From NCBI RefSeq assembly GCF_050920415.1, contig NZ_CP169309.1: 64,000 nt of DNA; one strand, 5' to 3'. The notes below the pieces were generated by a model. The model was given only the letters and a program-made list of their open reading frames with translations, ran no database searches and was not told the origin of the DNA. A program made the position numbers and the translations under genes. The stretch comes from Escherichia coli. Its GTDB lineage: Bacteria; Pseudomonadota; Gammaproteobacteria; Enterobacterales; Enterobacteriaceae. Below are positions 5,689 through 32,387 of this stretch, piece after piece. Numbering within the stretch: the stretch's first letter is position 1; the number at the start of each line of letters is the position of its first letter.

Positions 5689-6116
5689 AGGTGGTTCTCC
5701 AGTCGCAGGCCAAGAACACCAGCAATCTCTTCCAGAACCTTACGCTCTTCCGGCTCAATTTCACCATCTGCTTCAGCAATGGCCACCGCCACATCCAGCA
5801 CATCTTCCGCTTCACGCGTATCGTGTTTCACATCTTCAATTTCACGCAACGCTGCACGACGACCAATTTTAAAATTGGTGTCAAGCTGACCTGTGATCGT
5901 GGCACTGATGGCATTAATTTCTGACGTAAACGTGGACAACGCTGGCTGGTTACGTAATACCTGTTCGATCTTCGCTTTCTCTGAAGTCTCACATTCACCA
6001 TCTGCATAGGCCACTAGGTAGGCAGCATTAATAACCGCCTGTGCCAGATCGCGTTTCTCAAACTTTTTAATTTCAGTTGCTGCTCTGCGGGTTTTCTTTT
6101 TGAAAATACCAAACAT
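5685..6116 (-). CDS. TerB-like (tellurite-resistance TerB domain) protein
   Basis: 143 aa with paired acidic helices typical of TerB (LAQAVINAAYLVAYADGECETSEKAKIEQVL ... VLDVAVAIAEADGEIEPEERKVLEEIAGVLGL). Confidence 0.7.
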   Translation of the reverse strand: MFGIFKKKTRRAATEIKKFEKRDLAQAVINAAYLVAYADGECETSEKAKIEQVLRNQPALSTFTSEINAISATITGQLDTNFKIGRRAALREIEDVKHDTREAEDVLDVAVAIAEADGEIEPEERKVLEEIAGVLGLRLENHL

Positions 6117-6289
6117 CGTGACTTTTCCTTTTAGTGGGTGAGCCTGCGCCCTGCGGGGACCAGCCCACAGAGAAAGTCACACTGACCATCCCGTAAGCTC
6201 CCCCCTGAAAAGCTCTGTGGTTTTTGATATACGCCGGGCGTGGCGCGGATACAAAAAAGGCCCGCAAAAGCGAGCCAGGAAAATAAGTA

Positions 6290-6366
6290 TGGCGCGTTGT
6301 ACTGGATTCGAACCAGTGACCGATTGCTTAGAAGGCAATTGCTCTGTCCGACTGAGCTAACAACGC
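6290..6366 (-). tRNA. tRNA-Arg (anticodon UCU), phage-encoded
   Basis: Minus strand GCGTTGTTAGCTCAGTCGGACAGAGCAATTGCCTTCTAAGCAATCGGTCACTGGTTCGAATCCAGTACAACGCGCCA folds as a canonical cloverleaf with anticodon loop CTTCTAA. Confidence 0.85.
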
Positions 6367-6379
6367 ATGATGCAGATAA

Positions 6380-6460
6380 TGGACCGCCATCGAGGACTCG
6401 AACCCCGCACCAACAACCCTGTTATCGTGTCGTCTGCTCTTCCTGATGAGCTAATGGCGG
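6380..6460 (-). tRNA. Atypical tRNA-like gene (acceptor, D and T arms present; anticodon arm does not fold canonically; possibly degenerate)
   Basis: Minus strand CCGCCATTAGCTCATCAGGAAGAGCAGACGACACGATAACAGGGTTGTTGGTGCGGGGTTCGAGTCCTCGATGGCGGTCCA: acceptor pairing, GCTC/GAGC D stem, GTTCGAGTC T arm and CCA end, but 27 nt between D and T stems. Confidence 0.45.
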
Positions 6461-6467
6461 TACGTTA

Positions 6468-6542
6468 TGGTGGCCCTGCTGGATTTGAACCAGCGACCTG
6501 GCGATTATGAGTCGCTCACTCTCACCACTGAGCTAAAGGGCC
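6468..6542 (-). tRNA. tRNA with CAU anticodon (resembles E. coli tRNA-Ile2, lysidine type; could be Met type)
   Basis: Minus strand GGCCCTTTAGCTCAGTGGTGAGAGTGAGCGACTCATAATCGCCAGGTCGCTGGTTCAAATCCAGCAGGGCCACCA; anticodon loop CTCATAA; acceptor stem one pair short of canonical. Confidence 0.8.
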
Positions 6543-6582
6543 GGGCGCAGGATAATAACGGTACGTAACTAATTCTGCAATA

Positions 6583-7641
6583 TCATCCGTTCTGACTGAC
6601 TAAATCCTGAACTTCCTTGACCGTCTGCTCAAAACGCTCAGTCTCCAGCTCAACGCCAATTGCACGACGTCCCAGCGCCATCGATGCTTTGACCGTCGAA
6701 CCCGACCCCATGAAAAAATCTGCAACCAGATCTCCCGGACGACTGCTTGCGCTGATTATCTGCTGCAACATTTCTGCCGGTTTTTCGCACGGATGTTTCC
6801 CGGGATAGTACTGCACCGGTTTATGCATCCACACATCGGTGTACGGCACCTGCACAGTCACACCGAAATACCGCCGCAAATTTTTATATTCTCTCAGCAG
6901 TTCCGTATACTGCCGGTTCAGTTCACTGTATGTGCTGACCAGCTGGTGGTGTGGCTGCTCCAGTTCACCGCGCTGATGTTTTTCTGCTGCAACACGCGCA
7001 AACAACGCCTGCAATTTGTTGTAATCAGCTTCGTTCGGTAACTGCCACTGACTGGTACCAAACCAGTGCGAAGCCATGTTTTTCTTTCCGGTGGCTTCCG
7101 CTATCTGTTTTGACGTTATTCCCAGTTCGGCACGAGCATCCCTGAAATACGATATCAGCGGTGCCATTATGTGCTGTTTGAGTTCCCTTTCTTTTGCCGC
7201 ATAGCCGTCACTTTTGCCGCGATATGGCCCCTGGTAATGTTCAGCAAACAGAACGCGCTCTGTGGCAGGAAAATATGCGCGCAGACTTTCTTTATTACAC
7301 CCATTCCAACGTCCGGACGGCTTCGCCCAGATGATATGGTTAAGCACGTTGAAACGTTCACGCATCATGATCTCAATATCAGATGCCAGGCGATGCCCAC
7401 AGAACAGGTAAAGGCTTCCGGCAGGTTTCAACACCCGCCAGAACTGGGCCAGACAGTGGTCCAGCCACTTAAGATAATCTTCGTCCCCTTTCCACTGATT
7501 GTCCCAACCGTTGGGTTTCACCTTGAAGTAAGGCGGATCGGTAACAATCAGGTCAATGGAATCATCAGGCAGGGACTGAATAAAATGCAGGCAATCAGCG
7601 TTGATTAAATCAACACTGTTTATTTTTACAGTATTTTTCAT
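6583..7641 (-). CDS. DNA methyltransferase (N6-adenine or N4-cytosine, DPPY motif), no adjacent restriction enzyme
   Basis: 352 aa with IVTDPPYF catalytic motif and C-terminal AdoMet motif DLVADFFMGSGST. Confidence 0.85.
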   Translation of the reverse strand: MKNTVKINSVDLINADCLHFIQSLPDDSIDLIVTDPPYFKVKPNGWDNQWKGDEDYLKWLDHCLAQFWRVLKPAGSLYLFCGHRLASDIEIMMRERFNVLNHIIWAKPSGRWNGCNKESLRAYFPATERVLFAEHYQGPYRGKSDGYAAKERELKQHIMAPLISYFRDARAELGITSKQIAEATGKKNMASHWFGTSQWQLPNEADYNKLQALFARVAAEKHQRGELEQPHHQLVSTYSELNRQYTELLREYKNLRRYFGVTVQVPYTDVWMHKPVQYYPGKHPCEKPAEMLQQIISASSRPGDLVADFFMGSGSTVKASMALGRRAIGVELETERFEQTVKEVQDLVSQNG

Positions 7642-16604: not shown

Positions 16605-17279
16605 ATGAAAACAGTCCATGACATCCGGCGGTCTAACGCCAGAAAACTGAGAGATGGTGTTGGCGGGAATTCTTCCTTTGCCACCATGATTGATCGCGAA
16701 CCAACCCAGACCAGCAGGTTTATGGGAGATGGTGCTACTAAAAATATCGGTGACAGCATGGCACGGCACATCGAAAAATGTTTCGACCTGCCTGTCGGAT
16801 GGCTTGATCAAGAACACCAGACAACGAACATCACAAAAAAACCTGATGTTTCAATCACTAATAAACAAATAACGTTAGTCCCTGTCATATCATGGGTACA
16901 GGCCGGAGCATGGAAAGAAGTTGGCTATTCTGAGGTTGATTTGAGCACAACAGAAACATATCCCTGCCCTGTACCCTGTGGCGAAATGACTTATATATTG
17001 AGGGTGATTGGTGATTCAATGATTGATGAGTACCGTCCGGGGGACATGATTTTTGTCGATCCAGAAGTACCAGCCTGCCACGGCGATGACGTTATTGCAT
17101 TGATGCACGATACAGGTGAAACCACCTTCAAAAGGTTGATAGAAGACGGGACACAGCGTTATCTCAAAGCATTAAACCCCAACTGGCCTGAGCCTTACAT
17201 TAAGATAAACGGTAATTGCTCTATCATTGGTACAGTTATTTTCTCAGGAAAACCAAGAAGATACAAAATTAAAGCCTGA
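16605..17279 (+). CDS. cI: CI-type prophage repressor (HTH plus S24 peptidase/LexA-like autocleavage domain)
   Basis: 224 aa; C-terminal S24 domain with GDSM motif (YILRVIGDSMIDEYRPGDMIFVD). Confidence 0.9.
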   Translation: MKTVHDIRRSNARKLRDGVGGNSSFATMIDREPTQTSRFMGDGATKNIGDSMARHIEKCFDLPVGWLDQEHQTTNITKKPDVSITNKQITLVPVISWVQAGAWKEVGYSEVDLSTTETYPCPVPCGEMTYILRVIGDSMIDEYRPGDMIFVDPEVPACHGDDVIALMHDTGETTFKRLIEDGTQRYLKALNPNWPEPYIKINGNCSIIGTVIFSGKPRRYKIKA

Positions 17280-17292
17280 TCAATGTCTATGA

Positions 17293-17315
17293 ACCTGCTT
17301 CGGCAGGTTTTTTTA
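17293..17315 (+). terminator. Rho-independent terminator after cI
   Basis: CCTGC-ttcg-GCAGG followed by T7. Confidence 0.7.
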
Positions 17316-17318
17316 TAC

Positions 17319-17349
17319 TTGACAATGTACCATTAAGATACATAATGTA
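17319..17349 (+). promoter_or_regulatory. pL-like promoter overlapped by OL operators
   Basis: TTGACA (-35) at 17319-17324, CATAAT (-10) at about 17341-17346; same ATGTA-N9-TACAT operator as OR at 17325-17343 plus a half-site. Confidence 0.6.
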
Positions 17350-17474
17350 CCTGCATAAGATATCGAACAGGCAGGACGCCCACGAAGTAGCCGTCCGGGG
17401 CATACGAAGACCGGAATGGTTCGTAAATAAAAAAGCGCCCAAGTGGACGCTTCACTTTTGAACTGGATTTATAA

Positions 17475-17684
17475 TCAATTATTTTCTTCATAAATGTTTT
17501 GTAATGTATTTATGAGATTTGGTATTTCTTTTATGGGAAAAGAATATATTGGACTTTCGATAATTTTATCAGATTCAAATGGTGGTTGTTTGCAGGACAG
17601 TTGAACTATAACTGAATTATGATCTTTAACTGGCACACAGTACCAACCACATACATCAAAAACAGGAGTATTTTGATTATCCAT
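17475..17684 (-). CDS. Hypothetical small protein in AT-rich segment, convergent with pL transcription
   Basis: 69 aa from ATG with GAGGA RBS (MDNQNTPVFDVCGWYCVPVKDH...); markedly AT-rich. Confidence 0.4.
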   Translation of the reverse strand: MDNQNTPVFDVCGWYCVPVKDHNSVIVQLSCKQPPFESDKIIESPIYSFPIKEIPNLINTLQNIYEENN

Positions 17685-18528
17685 TATGTCCTCGACAACT
17701 AAAAACACTGCGTACAAACCTCAAAAGCAGGGAGTTATTTATAAAATTTCATAAAGAATAATTACTGATAGCGACAATTCATTGTTCTTGAATTTTGAAA
17801 AATAGCAAGACAAAACAATGTAAACTTATTTAAGAAAAGTTCTTATTATGTAAACAAAACAACCAATTCGTTATATAGGAAAAACAAATAGTACGCAAGA
17901 AAATATTCAACAGGGGTATTACATTCAACCATAAGAGTAATCGTCTCTTTGGTAACTAATACCGAACATTTTATTGTAACACGTCGTATGGCACATGCGT
18001 CGTTAGCGGTCTGGGGACGTTAAAGGGGACAATCCACTCCTTGCTCGGGCAAACAAACCAGGTAGCCGGAATGTGCAAGTCAATGATGATGCTGATAAGA
18101 CGCCTAACCAGCGTGGCGATCCGGTTTGACGCCTGGGAAGAGACCAGGGTGCAACGATGAGGGCATTTATGGAGCCGCGACAAAGTGTGGTGCCATAACT
18201 GGCTAAGTGCTCTCAGCGTTGTGGTAATCCGCGAAATGGCGCGGCGGTAAGTATGGCGGGGTTACTCTTTCCCCGTTGAGGACACCGGATTGTCAGGTTG
18301 ACCATACGCCTGAGTGACAACCCCACCACAACAGCCACTGCTTTGGCGGTACCAGCTTGTACCCTTGCTTCCGGCTGGTACCGTCCTTTTTACAAAACAG
18401 AGAAGAGCATCACCGGACGACGGGCTCATAACCCAATCCATCCGGGCGGCTGCCACCGCAGGTGTTCTTCTCTGTTTTGTGGAGAAACCAACCGGCCTTG
18501 CAGGGTCGATATGATGAGGAGCAGCAAA

Positions 18529-20445: not shown

Positions 20446-20798
20446 ATGTTTTCGAAATGGAAGGGTTTCTTCGCGGGAAATGTGTACCGCGAGATCTGAA
20501 AGTGAACGAAACAAATGCTGAGTACCTGGTACGTAAATTCGACGCGCTTGAAGCTAAATGTGCGGCACTGGAAAACAAAATAATACCAGTGTCAACTGAA
20601 CTGCCACCAGCAAATGAAAGTGTTCTGTTATTTGATGCTAATGGAGAAGGCTGGCTGATTGGCTGGCGTTCTCTCTGGTACACCTAGGGACAAAAAGAAA
20701 CCGGAGAATGGCAGTGGACATTTCAGGTCGGGGACCTTGAAAACGTCAATATCACTCACTGGGCAGTAGTGCCAAAAGCACCGGAGGCTGGAGCATAA
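20436..20798 (+). pseudogene. YfdS-like gene interrupted by an in-frame TAG at 20685-20687
   Basis: The frame continues after the TAG as GQKETGEWQWTFQVGDLENVNITHWAVVPKAPEAGA and ends at a TAA overlapping the next ATG (TAATG at 20796-20800); total length 120 codons. Confidence 0.5.
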
Positions 20799-21577
20799 TG
20801 ACCACATTTACCAATAAAGAACTGATTAAAGAAATCAAAGAACGAATCAGCAGCCTAGAGGTTCGAGACGATATTGAGCGCCGTGCTTATGAAATTGCTC
20901 TGGCATCGCTAGAAGAGGAGCCGGTGGCGTGGCTGCATTCAGAAAATGGCTTAGGTATTCCGGCAATAACGAGGAGTAAAAACATTGCTGACAGTTGGTT
21001 ATCAAAGGGCTGGTATGTTCAGCCGCTATATATAGCCAAGCCAGTGCCGGTAGTGCCAGATGCTCGTCCGTCTTTAAATAATGGCATAGTCGGTTTTGAT
21101 GAAGGCTGGAACGCCTGCCGCGCCGCCATGCTTCATGGTGCCGAACCTGTAAACCAAACTTACAAGTCACCACACACGCAGTTTGAACAAGTTGCTGACC
21201 TCTACGAAATGCAATTTGATGACGGTCGCACTTGTGCCTTTCACACTGATGCGCAAAAGGCTGCGCAATGGCTTCAGGTGTGCGACGGAAACAGGGTTCA
21301 GGAATACGTTAAGCTGGAACGGCTGCAGAACGCGCTGTCTGGCAACTCTCCGGTAAGTCCAGGTGGTTGGATAAGCTGTAGTGAGCGAATGCCGAATGAT
21401 AAACAGTATGTTTGGTGTTGGGGGAAGTCTTACGGCTGGACTGAGTGCGATACCTTCGAAGGGTATTACGATTGGTCGAGAAACAAATGGTGGGCAGTTA
21501 CTGACAATGAGGAAGAACAGGCATCGAAAGTAACCCACTGGATGCCACTACCGGAGCCGCCGCAGGAGGTGAAGTAA
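20798..21577 (+). CDS. Hypothetical protein with DUF551-like Trp-rich C-terminal region
   Basis: 259 aa; C-terminal WISCSERMPNDKQYVWCWGKSYGWTECDTFEGYYDWSRNKWWAVTDN...HWMPLPEPP pattern. Confidence 0.6.
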   Translation: MTTFTNKELIKEIKERISSLEVRDDIERRAYEIALASLEEEPVAWLHSENGLGIPAITRSKNIADSWLSKGWYVQPLYIAKPVPVVPDARPSLNNGIVGFDEGWNACRAAMLHGAEPVNQTYKSPHTQFEQVADLYEMQFDDGRTCAFHTDAQKAAQWLQVCDGNRVQEYVKLERLQNALSGNSPVSPGGWISCSERMPNDKQYVWCWGKSYGWTECDTFEGYYDWSRNKWWAVTDNEEEQASKVTHWMPLPEPPQEVK

Positions 21578-21771
21578 TGAACAACTTAATGACAACTAAA
21601 CAAGTCGCCGATTTCTGTGGTGTTTCAGTATCGACAGTTCTTCGCTGGAACAGCGTAAACAGGAGAACTGGTCAGAAATACAGGCCTGACTTTCCAGATC
21701 CTGATATTAAATCCTGCCCAAATAAATGGGCATCACACAAGATTTACAGATTTGCGGGAGTGATTGAGTAA
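21577..21771 (+). CDS. xis: Excisionase / AlpA-family HTH protein
   Basis: 64 aa with TTKQVADFCGVSVSTVLRWN motif; last gene of the pL operon next to int. Confidence 0.7.
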   Translation: MNNLMTTKQVADFCGVSVSTVLRWNSVNRRTGQKYRPDFPDPDIKSCPNKWASHKIYRFAGVIE

Positions 21772-22053
21772 TATGTATTAGCTTAGATGTGAGCTGACAC
21801 ATCTATGCTTAGATGCCAAACCTAATCTGAGCGTCCACTCTTTACCAAGAGCGGACGTTACCAATGACCATATGACATGAATCGATAAGATCAAAACATT
21901 ATCGCCAAGAAATGTCATACCATTGATACAAATAAAATTGATTACCCCCTTACTCTTGTTGAAAAGTTAGTCGTAGAGTACCTATCGCAATGTAATCAGC
22001 TTTAATCATCTGAAAATTACTCCTTAAAAATTAGCTTTTATATACTGAACAAA

Positions 22054-22773
22054 TTAAATCTCTGTTTCTTTTCCTGCTCGGCTCAACCAATACTCCATTG
22101 TTTGAGTATGAATCTTTTCAGCGTATATTTTATCAATTAATTTATCTTGTTTTTCTTTAATGACTTCACGCAGTGAATCATATAACATAAAAAAACGTTC
22201 ATCATCTTCCTCATTATTACCGTAATTTATTTGATTGAGCTCTGAAAAAATATGATAGTACCTTTTTTTCTTGGTCCCCGGCAATATTAAAACCAAGCCA
22301 CATTGATCATATTCGAATTCACCTTTATGGGCAGCAAAGTTATGTCTAACATTCATAATAGAATCATGTAAATCTCTATATTTTTCTGGCACATGCTTTC
22401 TCTGCAATGTGAATCGACGCCCTTTCGCCTCTGTAAAACACTTACCGTAAGTAACAACTTTTGATATAAACAAAGACTTTAATATTAGATTCTTTTCTAA
22501 ATCCGGATAAATAAAGTGTTGTTCTTTATTAATGTTATTACAAATATTTTTTATTATATTCTCCCAACCAATAACATTCCGAAGATCTTTATCAAGCAAC
22601 TGTAAGGCCACATATTGTTCTACAAAGCGGCCTTTTAAAGGTATTCGTGGTAATATTACACCTTTCTGCTTATAAATTCTTTCTATCGTATTATCTGGAT
22701 ATTGGATCTTCCTTATTTCTATTCCGTCTTCTTCTGATACCCTTACTAATGGTTCATTTTTTAACTTTGACAT
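22054..22773 (-). CDS. Hypothetical protein with HEPN-like R-x5-H motif (candidate abortive-infection/defence protein)
   Basis: 239-aa ORF in a strongly AT-rich segment between xis and int; contains NVRHNFAAHKGEF (R-x5-H); no other family recognised. Confidence 0.6.
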   Translation of the reverse strand: MSKLKNEPLVRVSEEDGIEIRKIQYPDNTIERIYKQKGVILPRIPLKGRFVEQYVALQLLDKDLRNVIGWENIIKNICNNINKEQHFIYPDLEKNLILKSLFISKVVTYGKCFTEAKGRRFTLQRKHVPEKYRDLHDSIMNVRHNFAAHKGEFEYDQCGLVLILPGTKKKRYYHIFSELNQINYGNNEEDDERFFMLYDSLREVIKEKQDKLIDKIYAEKIHTQTMEYWLSRAGKETEI

Positions 22774-23012
22774 GTTAACCCTCTTAAATAAAAAACTAAC
22801 TTTATCCAGATAGTGTCCGTTAAGAAGTTTTCGTTACAACTAAGTTTCTAGGTAAATCATGAATCGACCTATAGTATCAAAAACATTTGGTGGTAAACAT
22901 CTGCATTTATCAAATGGCAGGAGCGATTTAGGGGCATAGGGATAGTGATGATATCGATACCCGCCCCCTCTTATGTCAACACAATGGCGTAAACTTAACG
23001 CTCACATCTCGC

Positions 23013-24269
23013 TCAAAGTGTGCTAGGAGATTTGGTTATGTTCAGGTGATACAAACCGTCAGTTTGACAATTAACAATCGATTCAACCCTCTTCCACCAT
23101 GCCAGGTAAGCTTTACGCTGTTCTTCTAGATAATCACTCTTATCATAAACTTGCCATACCCCTGGCAGCTTATGACCAAGCATAATTTCTGCGATATGAG
23201 GCGCAGTAAGATCAGAAAAATTTGTTCGAGCTGTACGTCTCAAGTCATGAAGAGACCAATGAGGGAATTGATATCCTAAACACCGCCATGCGTACTGCAT
23301 TAAATTGTAAGGCAGCGACTGCAATGATGTCCGACCAACGGGTTCCCTGCTTCCTTCCTTAGTAAAAAGCATATCGGAACCATTGTTCATAGAGATAGCG
23401 TACTTTATAAGCTCTTCAACCGGTTCAATAATGGGCCGCTTTAGCGGTTCGCCTGTTATCTCCCCAGTCTTATGTCGTTCTGGTGGTACAGTCCATACTT
23501 TATTAATGAAATCAAAATCGTCCACCCGGGCGGTAATTAGCTCTGAACTACGGCAACCAAAATGCAGCAATAGTTTAATGAAGGCCCGGTATTTAGGAAC
23601 CATTCGAGAACCATCGATCGCAGCATAAAGGATTTTAATTTCATCATGTGTCAGAAACCGTTTCTTCTGACCTTTACGGATATCCATATCTTTACCCGTG
23701 ATATCCGACAGCGGGCGAGTTTCAATGAGCTTTCTCTTATACGCCCAGACATGGGCCTGCTTTGCGTTAATTAGCAATCGGTCTGCTATTGCTGGAGTCT
23801 TAGTGCTAAGAGGCTCCAGGACTTCTAACCAATCATGCAATGTAGCTGCATCGTGAGGGATATTCCCGATTTTAGAGAACAGGTGCAGCTCAAACGAGCG
23901 AAGTATCTGTTCAGAACCTTTTTTATTTTTTACACAATATGCTTCATACCAAGCACGGATCACAGACTCTACCGTCATGGCTTCAGTAGCTTTTCGTTTT
24001 TCAGCCTGCTTGACCAATCGTGGATTACGGTTTGACTCGAGTTCACCACGAAGACGGATAACTTCTTCTCTGGCCTCTTTTAATCCAGTTGCCGGGTAAG
24101 TTCCGATATCAAGACGCTCACCTTTCCCTGCCCATTGATAACGATATTGGAACACTACGCGACCTTTCGGTGATACTCTGACAGACAGACCATCACGATC
24201 GGATTTAACCAAAACCTTATCACGTTCCTTTCCAACGACTGAACGCAACCACGCATCAGACAGCGCCAT
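23013..24269 (-). CDS. int: Tyrosine-type phage integrase
   Basis: 418 aa; C-terminal catalytic region with HDLRRT and LGH...Y pattern. Confidence 0.9.
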   Translation of the reverse strand: MALSDAWLRSVVGKERDKVLVKSDRDGLSVRVSPKGRVVFQYRYQWAGKGERLDIGTYPATGLKEAREEVIRLRGELESNRNPRLVKQAEKRKATEAMTVESVIRAWYEAYCVKNKKGSEQILRSFELHLFSKIGNIPHDAATLHDWLEVLEPLSTKTPAIADRLLINAKQAHVWAYKRKLIETRPLSDITGKDMDIRKGQKKRFLTHDEIKILYAAIDGSRMVPKYRAFIKLLLHFGCRSSELITARVDDFDFINKVWTVPPERHKTGEITGEPLKRPIIEPVEELIKYAISMNNGSDMLFTKEGSREPVGRTSLQSLPYNLMQYAWRCLGYQFPHWSLHDLRRTARTNFSDLTAPHIAEIMLGHKLPGVWQVYDKSDYLEEQRKAYLAWWKRVESIVNCQTDGLYHLNITKSPSTL

Positions 24270-24284
24270 TACTCACCTTGTACA

Positions 24285-24480
24285 AATCGCAAAACACCTC
24301 TGCTGTTTTGTACATTATGTACAAGCATATGTACAGATTTTTGATGAAAGCAAGCTGATCGATTTAAAGTTACATGAAAGAGTTTTCAATTAAAGAAGCT
24401 ACATAACCAAATGTATTTAAATGAGTTACATAACTCAACCTAAATTAACTGAAAGGATTTTGAAAGAGTAAAAGAGCTTT
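24285..24480. other. Probable attachment-site region (attR side) with integrase arm-type repeats
   Basis: Clustered TGTACA/TTGTACA motifs and two TACATAAC repeats between int start and host yjjG; core site not resolvable without the other prophage end. Confidence 0.4.
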
Positions 24481-24654
24481 AATTTGGGCTTAATTATTGG
24501 GGTGAGAAATAATGGCAAAAGTGCGGCGCTTCGCCACCTCTTGCAAATAAGGAGACAACGTCATAATTCTTTCTTCTTGAGTAAGCGGCATCGCGCCGCG
24601 CTTGTTGAAAACGAAAAATTGCGGCTATTTTACCCATCAACGGGGGGGAGGCAA

Positions 24655-25332
24655 TCAGTGTTTACACAGGAGCTGCTCCAGTTCGTGCAACGAAGAAACG
24701 GTCCAGGTAGGCGCGATGCCTTCTGGTTGCTCGCGATTGTGAGCATTCAGCCAGCAGGTCGCAAGCCCGGCGTTGATGCCACCGAGAATATCGGACTCGG
24801 CAGTGTCGCCAACCATCAGCACGCGTGAACGGTCAGGATTGCCCGCCTGTTCCAGCGCATAATCGAAAATTTTCTTATTCGGTTTGGCTACGCCAACTTC
24901 TTCGGAAATCACCAACAAATCGAAATAATCACGCAGGCCCGTGCGTTCCAGACGCACTTGCTGCAAGGCGCTAAAGCCGTTGGTGATGATGCCGATTTTG
25001 GCGTTGCCGCGAATGGCATTAAGCAGGGAAACCGCGCCCGGCAGCGGTGTGCAAATTTCCGCCATCGCATTAATGAAGGCCTCGTTGAGTTTACCTGGCT
25101 CGACGTTCAGCCGTTCGGCCCAGCTCTCAAAACGCCCGTGCTGAAGCTGTAATGAAGTGATCGCACCGTTTTGATAATCTACCCACAGGGGCTTGTTAAC
25201 GGCCTGATAGTCCTGAAAATCTTCAGCGGTAAAAGTGACGCTGTAATCAAGAAACATCCGCTGCAGGCCGGTGAACGAGTCAAAAGTAAACAGCGTTTCA
25301 TCGGCATCAAAGAAAATCCAGTCCCACTTCAT
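24655..25332 (-). CDS. yjjG: Pyrimidine 5'-nucleotidase YjjG (HAD family)
   Basis: 225 aa [17 protein letters not shown]... HAD motif; gene order matches K-12. Confidence 0.9.
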
Positions 25333-29849: not shown

Positions 29850-30532
29850 TCTGCGGCATCTCCATAAACAGAAGGCAAGTTAAGTTCTCTTGCACCCTGC
29901 GCGCTATTTATCCATGCATACATTTCAGCGTTGCTGTGAATTGCCAGTCGACGCATCGCACTGTTTTTTTGGGCGCTGATAGTTTTATTACTTTTCTTAA
30001 GCAATGAAGCTATCTGGTTGATGCCCCATCCTTTACCTAATAGCCGCAGTACTTTGCGCTCTGAAAGAGTGAGAATAACGGAGCGATAGCTAAAATCATG
30101 CGTTTCAGTCATTGCCGGAGAGGTCAGCATGGCACTGATACGCTCTGCGTGCGTATTGCCAGAACGCACGGTCTTGACCAGATTCTCAATGGGTTCAACA
30201 TCAGACAATAATGTCGCCGTAGGGCACATGAGCAGTTCTACCGCCTGGGAATACCAGGAGCGTGACACCATGAAAACCCAGTGAATTTCCCGATATTGTG
30301 AGATTAAAGAATAATAATGCTCACAAACAGAACGAGGATCTTCACTTTCACCGGCTAAATCTGCAATAACTAATCCGGAACGACGTAATTGTAATAAGGT
30401 AAGGTCCTCCGCAGAGGCGCTGGATATTATTTCATATTCAGGGAAGTGAGTCCTCATGACCTCTTTTAACCCTGCTTGCATAACAGGTATTTTACTGATA
30501 ACAATTCCATTTTTGCAGCATCCTGGCAACAT
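29807..30532 (-). CDS. yjjQ: LuxR-family transcriptional regulator YjjQ
   Basis: 241 aa with C-terminal LuxR HTH ([23 protein letters not shown]); overlaps bglJ start. Confidence 0.8.
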
Positions 30533-31152
30533 ATTTCCTCCACATCCACTGTCTAAAAATCATGATGGTCTATTCAGGATATTCATTCCTTAAATGTTTC
30601 CAGCAAATTAATAGATTAAGCGAATAAATTATCCTTTGCATTCACTTTCATATCAGCATACTCCTGCTGCACAATAACTCCACTGCATGTGTCAGAAGGT
30701 TAGCATCAAATGATAACCTGGTGAAATAGCCTGGAGACATTTAAAATATCTACATTAAGTTGTTAGAAATACTTAATGAAAAACAGAATTCTCATTCATT
30801 TAATTTATAATTAAAAAATATTTCTTCTCGCAAAATAAAAAATCACACAATCAATATTTATTCAATAAAATCTGATAGTTTTATCTTTTTTAAAGCCTAA
30901 AAAAGCACTCAGTTATTGATAATCCCGATTCGTAAAAACCAGACCATACATTCATTATGCCGATAATATTCACGTTATAATTTGTTTACAGCTTGAGATT
31001 ATTCGTTTTTTACCCTCCGAGCCTCTCCCGATAACCAGGATTAATCAGCGCAATTTTGATCTTAACCTGCCGCAAAACAACCGCGCTTCATGATACAAAT
31101 GGATTCTCATAATTTGAACAATACGCAGCGCGTCTATGACAAAGGGCGAGTT

Positions 31153-32387
<1,235 letters not shown>

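Follow-up and report, generated by a model that had tools for sequence, protein, structure and literature searches.

What is a lone AT-rich gene doing between the excisionase and integrase genes of an Escherichia coli prophage, when the protein it encodes matches no catalogued family? The gene occupies positions 22054..22773 (− strand) of a 64,000-nt stretch of E. coli DNA (assembly GCF_050920415.1, contig NZ_CP169309.1), hereafter the window, for which the annotation of the Prokaryotic Genome Annotation Pipeline (PGAP) was read from the 100% identical chromosome of E. coli MFDS1022581. Its open reading frame (ORF) starts with ATG, is preceded by the Shine-Dalgarno sequence AAGAGGG 6 nt upstream, and encodes a 239-amino-acid (aa) protein (WP_000040218.1; phrog_8440). 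An earlier note on this DNA, here called the original prediction, had proposed an uncharacterised abortive-infection (Abi) gene on the strength of an R-x5-H spacing of the kind found in HEPN RNases. Fold and genomic context point us in the same direction: with a probability of about 0.55, the protein is an anti-phage Abi effector and the gene encodes a solo HEPN RNase that is expressed in the lysogen, acts in abortive infection and is carried as exchangeable prophage cargo.

An AlphaFold2 (AF2) model of the protein (mean predicted local distance difference test, pLDDT, 86.5; predicted template modelling score, pTM, 0.75) shows a three-stranded N-terminal beta unit (residues 9–36), followed by a four-helix bundle made up of helices 49–79, 92–111, 130–148 and 188–221, with a beta-hairpin insert (157–180) between the third and fourth helices. 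The AFDB entry for the identical protein superposes on this model with a template modelling (TM) score of 0.96. The bundle has the up-down arrangement of two alpha-hairpins that characterises HEPN domains. In these domains the third bundle helix ends with the motif (PMC3710099), and in the AF2 model the Rx5H motif lies at the C-terminal end of precisely this helix (130–148). A Foldseek search of AFDB50 returned 226 matches at E ≤ 1e-3, and the named proteins among the top 50 all belong to HEPN families: a Cthe_2314-like HEPN protein (E 2.5e-18, TM 0.82), a ‘HEPN domain-containing’ protein, an Apea-like HEPN protein (E 8e-11), six AbiU2-like HEPN proteins (E about 1e-8 to 6e-7) and an AbiV-family protein. 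The same tool found nothing in the PDB at E ≤ 1e-3.

How much can be made of the motif itself? The peptide NVRHNFAAHKGEF comprises residues 141–153, with R143 at nt 22347–22345 and H149 at nt 22329–22327; the codons for R143-H-N-F-A-A-H149 (22327..22347, −) specify the predicted HEPN Rx5H catalytic motif. HEPN active sites take the form Rx4-6H with a following residue that is ‘typically polar (mostly N, D or H)’ (PMC3710099). The bare motif means little: one or more Rx4-6H patterns occur in 74% of shuffled versions of the 239-aa protein (mean 1.3), and a further copy in the protein itself, at R120, is not conserved. The pattern alone is no evidence; it is conservation that gives the motif its significance. 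Statistically, the original prediction's argument from the R-x5-H motif alone was therefore empty, although the motif is present and conserved family-wide.

In an alignment of 127 diverse members that are 19–86% identical to the query, R143 is present in 127/127, H149 in 126/127 and the x5 spacing in 126/127, while residue 144, directly after R143, is H in 72 members, N in 53 and D in 2, with nothing else observed. Invariant besides R143 are Y109, R119 and H136. D63 is retained in 126/127 members and belongs to an E-K-D-L-R block (E/D61 in 80/127, K/R65 in 84/127); the HEPN criterion asks for an upstream acidic residue near the motif, typically within Ex3[KR], and D63 sits in the first bundle helix rather than in helix 2. 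Residues 112–129, between helices 92–111 and 130–148, form a non-helical, strongly conserved CFTEAKGRRF segment that contains the invariant R119.

A word-indexed search detected 25 enterobacterial relatives with identities down to 37%, and an exhaustive profile search enlarged the family to at least 924 cluster representatives (50% identity clusters) at E ≤ 1e-3, with 397 at E ≤ 1e-10; among the matches listed, members are mostly 220–260 aa long. A spurious ORF is excluded, because the family is large and conserved. The original prediction had named the four-helix HEPN fold as the feature to look for in a structure model. Such a bundle is confidently predicted and its third helix ends in the motif; this fold, together with the conserved Rx5H, its polar follower and the Foldseek matches to named HEPN families, bears out the HEPN call: the 239-aa protein is very probably a HEPN-fold protein with a catalytic-type site.

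Sequence libraries gave a different picture. Pfam, NCBIfam, PADLOC and PDB sequences provided no credible match to the query, with PADLOC-DB v2.0.0 returning zero families at E ≤ 10, and the sole library match was to full-length phrog_8440, whose function label reads ‘unknown function’. Every annotated copy is named ‘hypothetical protein’, and WP_000040218, YP_009909736 and phrog_8440 are not mentioned in the literature, papers on phage 2H10 being devoted to other topics. Weak matches of the query to DUF677, Tcp10_C, NF005251 (0.071) and Fic proteins (E ~0.5) were judged to be chance. When 20 distant members were searched with PADLOC and NCBIfam, nothing emerged beyond a weak LmuA match, which was likewise judged to be chance (E 0.0017, 15.8 bits; P0028 only, among ten distant members). 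The family profile drew only spurious uteroglobin-fusion matches from PDB sequences, and a word-indexed search with the 127-sequence alignment added zero new relatives and no Pfam-labelled bridge.

The one Pfam family to recur among the 127 members was HEPN_AbiU2, at sub-significant levels (three members at E ≤ 0.1, best 5.6e-3, none ≤ 0.001). For the Cthe_2314 and Apea Pfam models, no member of the 127 reached E ≤ 0.1, and the models PF18734, PF18730 and PF18739 gave no match to the query at E ≤ 10. The original statement that the protein belongs to no recognised family is therefore borne out, as Pfam, NCBIfam, PADLOC and PDB sequences were empty and phrog_8440 was all that remained. Both profile hidden Markov model (HMM) and structure-based searches had been proposed as checks on it; similarity to HEPN proteins was not significant by sequence HMM but significant by Foldseek against AFDB50. 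As judged by those families’ own models, the protein lies outside the AbiU2, Apea and Cthe_2314 Pfam families. It represents a new, unmodelled family of the HEPN superfamily that is nearest to the AbiU2/Apea/Cthe_2314 group and has its catalytic signature intact.

The prophage harbouring the gene is lambdoid and related to phage 2H10, and the gene lies at its left edge. On one side is the excisionase gene xis (21577..21771, +; 64 aa; phrog_1553, 4.1e-36; excisionase by the annotation of phage 2H10), which closes the early-left operon yfdP-yfdQ-yfdR-DUF551-xis; the 239-aa gene is convergent with this operon. On the other side, directly upstream on the same strand and separated by a 239-nt gap, is a 418-aa tyrosine integrase (23013..24269, −; phrog_1, 4.5e-74; ‘tyrosine-type recombinase/integrase’ by PGAP), past which come the host genes yjjG, rimI and holD. 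GC content of the 239-aa gene is 0.312, as compared to 0.444 for the integrase, 0.415 for xis, 0.494 for the DUF551 gene and 0.498 for the whole window, in which just 0.5% of 720-nt windows are equally low.

Comparison with six sibling prophages (loci L019–L024 of our sample) delimits what is exchanged at this position. Their alignments to the window break at 23067 in five cases and at 23072 in the sixth (L020), i.e. inside the last 18–20 codons of int, and on the xis side between 21807 and 21865. The variable cargo module of the int-xis slot so delimited measures 1.2 kb (about 21866..23066) and has a GC content of 0.33. Alternative cargos of the slot include a 566-aa AIPR-family protein with an end-to-end match to the PADLOC AbiU model (2.6e-111) and a DUF6602 protein of 451 aa whose nuclease domain is NucC/PD-(D/E)xK-like (2.6e-24). 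Four further cargos (160+150 aa, 460 aa, 436+81 aa and 413 aa) are uncharacterised, match nothing in PADLOC or NCBIfam, and are further defence candidates. The AbiU/AIPR cargo resembles our gene in being a single gene on the same strand in the same int-xis slot by yjjG; as the 566-aa AIPR protein is unrelated, this is positional analogy, not homology. Because AbiU occupies the identical slot, the slot can be said to carry abortive-infection genes. P4 satellites and P2-related phages are already known to have hotspots beside int that carry AIPR and HEPN cargo (PMC9122126).

These findings agree with the original description of the locus in each of its parts. The gene does lie between an excisionase (4e-36 to phrog_1553) and an integrase, shares the integrase strand and faces the pL operon, as seen in both the ORF map and the PGAP annotation, and is more AT-rich than its phage neighbours (0.415–0.494). 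Its reading as a horizontally acquired moron fits a sharply bounded module that is swapped for at least six other cargos in siblings, one of them a full-length AbiU.

Among complete E. coli genomes, 70 of 5426 (1.3%) contain the gene, always on the chromosome; in 69 of them, one locus accounts for 80% or more of an int-gene-xis query. Many more genomes have a closely related integrase at the same yjjG site (95–97% identical over the int-containing region by megablast) but differ in the DNA that separates int from xis. Of the E. coli carriers, 69/70 have an intact gene. An IS3-family insertion sequence splits it in strain bR_120_Kylling (L031), and an IMG/VR provirus copy (L046, 63% identical) is broken into two ORFs; these gene-breaking events are occasional inactivations of an otherwise intact gene. 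In two E. coli strains, one of them CUVET16-321 (L030), an IS1 element is found just downstream of an intact copy.

Beyond E. coli, genomic context was sampled at ~30 loci, and neighbouring ORFs were clustered for 21 diverged loci. Besides prophage ends, the settings of homologues with 31–86% identity include a filamentous vibriophage, a conjugative element and a plasmid-borne lambdoid prophage region. The gene directly upstream on the same strand is an integrase in 9/21 diverged loci and umuC in 7/21. These were the only neighbours to recur in the clustering, which yielded no recurring partner downstream. In P2/186-like prophages (Yersinia, Enterobacter, Citrobacter and several IMG/VR proviruses; 38–42% identity), the homologue is the last gene, right after int on the same strand, and the Yersinia and Enterobacter copies overlap the int stop codon by 17–20 nt, downstream of a cI-type repressor. 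At the opposite prophage end, the Cronobacter copy (86%) and six other loci (31–77%) follow a umuDC-like pair of the prophage. Loci linked to umuD/umuC comprise intact pairs (L025, L042, L044, L047 and L048) as well as remnants (L014 and L053), and this linkage may reflect SOS-linked expression. In Cronobacter, a 23-aa fragment of the umuC C terminus (DUF4113) is found just after the gene (L026/L027, 6984–7055). This arrangement suggests that umuC received the module in its 3′ end; the module of the window has a comparable endpoint, inside the 3′ end of int.

Other contexts are more varied. One homologue has an S24 repressor as its neighbour and belongs to a lambdoid prophage in a genome of 6.8 Mb, and another sits on a conjugative element beside a Schlafen/AlbA-like gene. 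The filamentous (Tubulavirales) Vibrio phage 10N.286.54.E4_PE002 encodes a family member (5902–6639) with the motif RHNFAAHSG (hhalign probability 100%, E 2e-62); the depositor’s note on it says ‘endonuclease’, and an uncharacterised 368-aa gene follows. A 27%-identical member (81711–82469) lies between a lysis cassette (holin, endolysin, Rz-like) and HNH/terminase genes on NZ_CP104632.1, a non-mobilizable 101-kb E. coli plasmid with a lambdoid prophage region; this is a late-operon moron position, unlike that of the int-adjacent copies. A second, 227-aa gene in locus L017 was considered as a paralogue and found to be unrelated, and antisense ORFs overlapping the gene in 10 loci were treated as a by-product of the conserved coding sequence.

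Does the gene act alone? Nucleotide similarity between the E. coli and Cronobacter copies (22930→22046) extends over the ORF and 157 nt upstream only, despite their different positions in the respective prophages, and that between the E. coli and Leclercia copies over the ORF and ~20 nt on each side only. Two small ORFs were weighed as partners and rejected: a downstream 19-codon ORF (22010–21951) with a good Shine-Dalgarno sequence is absent from the Cronobacter and Leclercia copies, and a 46-aa ORF (21778–21918) lies partly outside the module. Tandem repeats scoring at least 30 were not found in 21700–24600, nor was any relevant Rfam match in 21000–25000. As conservation is limited to the ORF and a short upstream region, and as there is no conserved small ORF, no repeat and no Rfam match, the mobile unit is, to judge by these comparisons, one gene plus a short upstream region.

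This result bears directly on the most serious competitor of a solo Abi effector, namely that the protein is the toxin of a toxin–antitoxin (TA) or addiction module that stabilises the prophage and whose antitoxin went unrecognised as a small RNA, a tiny ORF or a gene located elsewhere in the prophage or host. HEPN proteins are often TA toxins, as exemplified by HepT/MntA, RnlA/RnlB and AbiF with its RNA antitoxin, yet the 21 diverged loci share no conserved neighbouring ORF, which led us to reject HEPN-MNT (HepT/MntA) and other two-gene HEPN TA systems. A type III or AbiF-like RNA antitoxin was dismissed as well, as neither tandem repeats nor an Rfam match flank the gene. The position by int and the attachment site (att) would suit element maintenance, but what travels as a conserved mobile unit is the ORF with at most 157 nt upstream, and the 19-codon ORF that might have served as antitoxin is missing in Cronobacter and Leclercia. 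Similarly, the IS3 disruption in one E. coli strain and the split provirus copy may hint at a cost of the gene, but this has to be set against 69 intact copies in 70 E. coli carriers. Overall, we consider a TA toxin improbable.

Somewhat less probable still is that the RNase serves the phage itself, be it in counter-defence (e.g. degradation of cyclic oligonucleotides), takeover of host RNA, or regulation of lysis-lysogeny or excision. Tight linkage to int in many phages would be in keeping with such a role, but the gene is dispensable, being replaced by unrelated cargo in close prophages, and is found in merely 1.3% of complete E. coli genomes. The distant relative in the late operon of a lambdoid element, between lysis cassette and terminase, could likewise be taken to work for its phage; against this, other homologues belong to a conjugative element and a filamentous phage, whose lifestyles are entirely different. 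Some HEPN domains do degrade cyclic oligoadenylates, but the same slot holds the defence gene AbiU. Least probable of all is a non-catalytic helical bundle that acts as a ligand- or protein-binding regulator and conserves R and H for binding, as non-catalytic HEPN domains typically lose Rx4-6H (PMC3710099), while the present family shows next to no variation in the motif, its polar follower, Y109, K111, R119, H136 and D63, and the AFDB neighbours are motif-bearing, Abi-type HEPN families.

For an Abi effector of this kind, the best functional template would be HepS of the Salmonella prophage Gifsy-1, a solo, constitutively produced HEPN Abi protein (PMC13043305). HepS forms a tetramer with misaligned catalytic residues that is opened by the siphovirus tail-tip protein J, whereupon tRNA anticodon loops are cut (PMC13043305). 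The two have in common that they are single HEPN proteins, accessory cargo of lambdoid prophages and without a conserved partner gene. They differ in that HepS has an Rx4H at about residue 100, as opposed to the Rx5H at 143–149, and in that the 239-aa protein possesses an N-terminal beta unit, a beta-hairpin between the third and fourth helices (H3-H4) and an int-adjacent position. The family profile did not match HepS among PDB sequences at E ≤ 10, the presence of the HepS entry in that copy being unconfirmed.

Structurally, the closest AFDB neighbours are AbiU2-like, Cthe_2314-like and short Apea-like proteins (PF18734, PF18730, PF18739), which match over the full length, span ~190–260 aa and align at Foldseek E-values of 1e-18 to 1e-7 and TM-scores of 0.55–0.84. 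These are motif-bearing HEPN families tied to Abi systems and restriction-modification (R-M) islands (Anantharaman et al. 2013, PMC3710099). AbiU2 is found in operons with Sel1-repeat proteins or R-M genes (PMC3710099), whereas the phrog_8440 family is solo. ApeA, a single-protein HEPN anticodon nuclease of ~580 aa, forms a dinucleotide-binding pocket from its N-terminal and Mid domains and assembles as decamers or dodecamers (bioRxiv 10.64898/2026.01.26.701840). Its HEPN domain, too, has an H3-H4 insertion, but the 239-aa protein lacks the N-terminal and Mid domains, having a short beta N terminus only, and gives no ApeA match in PADLOC. DARNA/PD-T7-3 was considered and proved to be a different protein. 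On the best reading of these analogies, the protein would work like the single-protein HEPN Abi systems of the HepS, AbiV or ApeA type while being a member of no PADLOC entry. The concept of prophages that carry solo HEPN Abi genes is established, which makes the proposal plausible and, to a specialist, unsurprising.

Expression in the lysogen is plausible, because P2/186-like homologues overlap the int stop codon in cI-int-gene arrays. The lysogenic transcript of 186 and P2 covers the repressor and int. In the window, the region that travels with the gene, as delimited by nucleotide similarity to the Cronobacter copy (22774..22930, −), may provide a promoter and ribosome-binding site of its own; it contains a possible extended −10 element, TGATACTAT, and a simple promoter scan found no consensus sigma-70 site in it.

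From these elements a working model can be sketched. In the lysogen, small amounts of the protein would be made, whether the short region upstream of the gene drives its expression or transcripts read through from int. The protein would stay inactive, probably by assembling into an oligomer whose dimers do not bring their two Rx5H motifs into productive alignment. A product of an infecting phage would then activate it, and we speculate that the N-terminal beta unit and/or the H3-H4 hairpin act as sensor. To judge by the motif, RNA would be cut through R143 and H149, most likely at tRNA anticodon loops, so that translation would stop and the infection abort, to the protection of the lysogen population and the prophage. 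The model builds on motif-bearing HEPN domains being metal-independent RNases whose dimers form a composite active site (PMC3710099), and on defence HEPN enzymes such as HepS, ApeA and DARNA staying inactive until they receive a phage cue.

A bolder version, to which we give clearly less than even odds, would make the protein the founding member of a widespread single-protein Abi family (at least 924 clusters at 50% identity, in Gammaproteobacteria and beyond). Its members would be minimal HEPN RNases that bring their own sensor, made up of the N-terminal beta unit together with the H3-H4 hairpin, and would respond to a trigger unlike those of HepS, Tha, ApeA and DARNA. The gene would then systematically form the last cistron of operons at prophage edges (cI-int, umuDC), and recombination inside the 3′ ends of these genes may have placed it there.

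Several observations in the remainder of the window stand apart from this argument. Between the xis stop codon and the cargo module, at 21790–21850, two inverted repeats were noted by eye, AGATGTG-n6-CACATCT and GTCCGCTCTT-GGTA-AAGAGTGGAC; neither precedes a T-run, and they may be terminators or a recombination boundary. Within the DUF551-family gene (20798–21577, 259 aa), a 160-nt segment (21168–21327) is missing from phage 2H10 and the sibling prophages, and the PGAP annotation of the identical genome gives this region as fragments/pseudogenes. A second AT-rich island (17201–17970; GC ≤ 0.34 per 720 nt) adjoins the LexA/cI-like repressor of the prophage (ymfK-type, 16605–17279), another typical moron position, and holds an 80-aa hypothetical ORF (17475–17717, −). 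A third AT-rich stretch (30251–31170) lies outside the prophage and corresponds, by offset from the annotated identical genome, to yjjQ and the yjjQ-yjjP intergenic region.

Three things give the finding its value: the unannotated family is large, the protein is a compact candidate for studies of mechanism, and the hotspot holds mostly uncharacterised cargo that is worth screening. If the proposed function is confirmed, a compact one-gene defence family would be added to the catalogues, and prophage-encoded immunity would turn out to be undercounted wherever the family occurs, as no Pfam, NCBIfam or PADLOC model for it exists. The int-xis slot of yjjG-integrated lambdoid prophages would be marked as a newly delimited cargo hotspot with at least seven alternative cargos, most of them uncharacterised. 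Finally, a self-contained sensor-plus-RNase of 239 aa would be well suited to studies of how HEPN enzymes of the solo type are silenced and activated.
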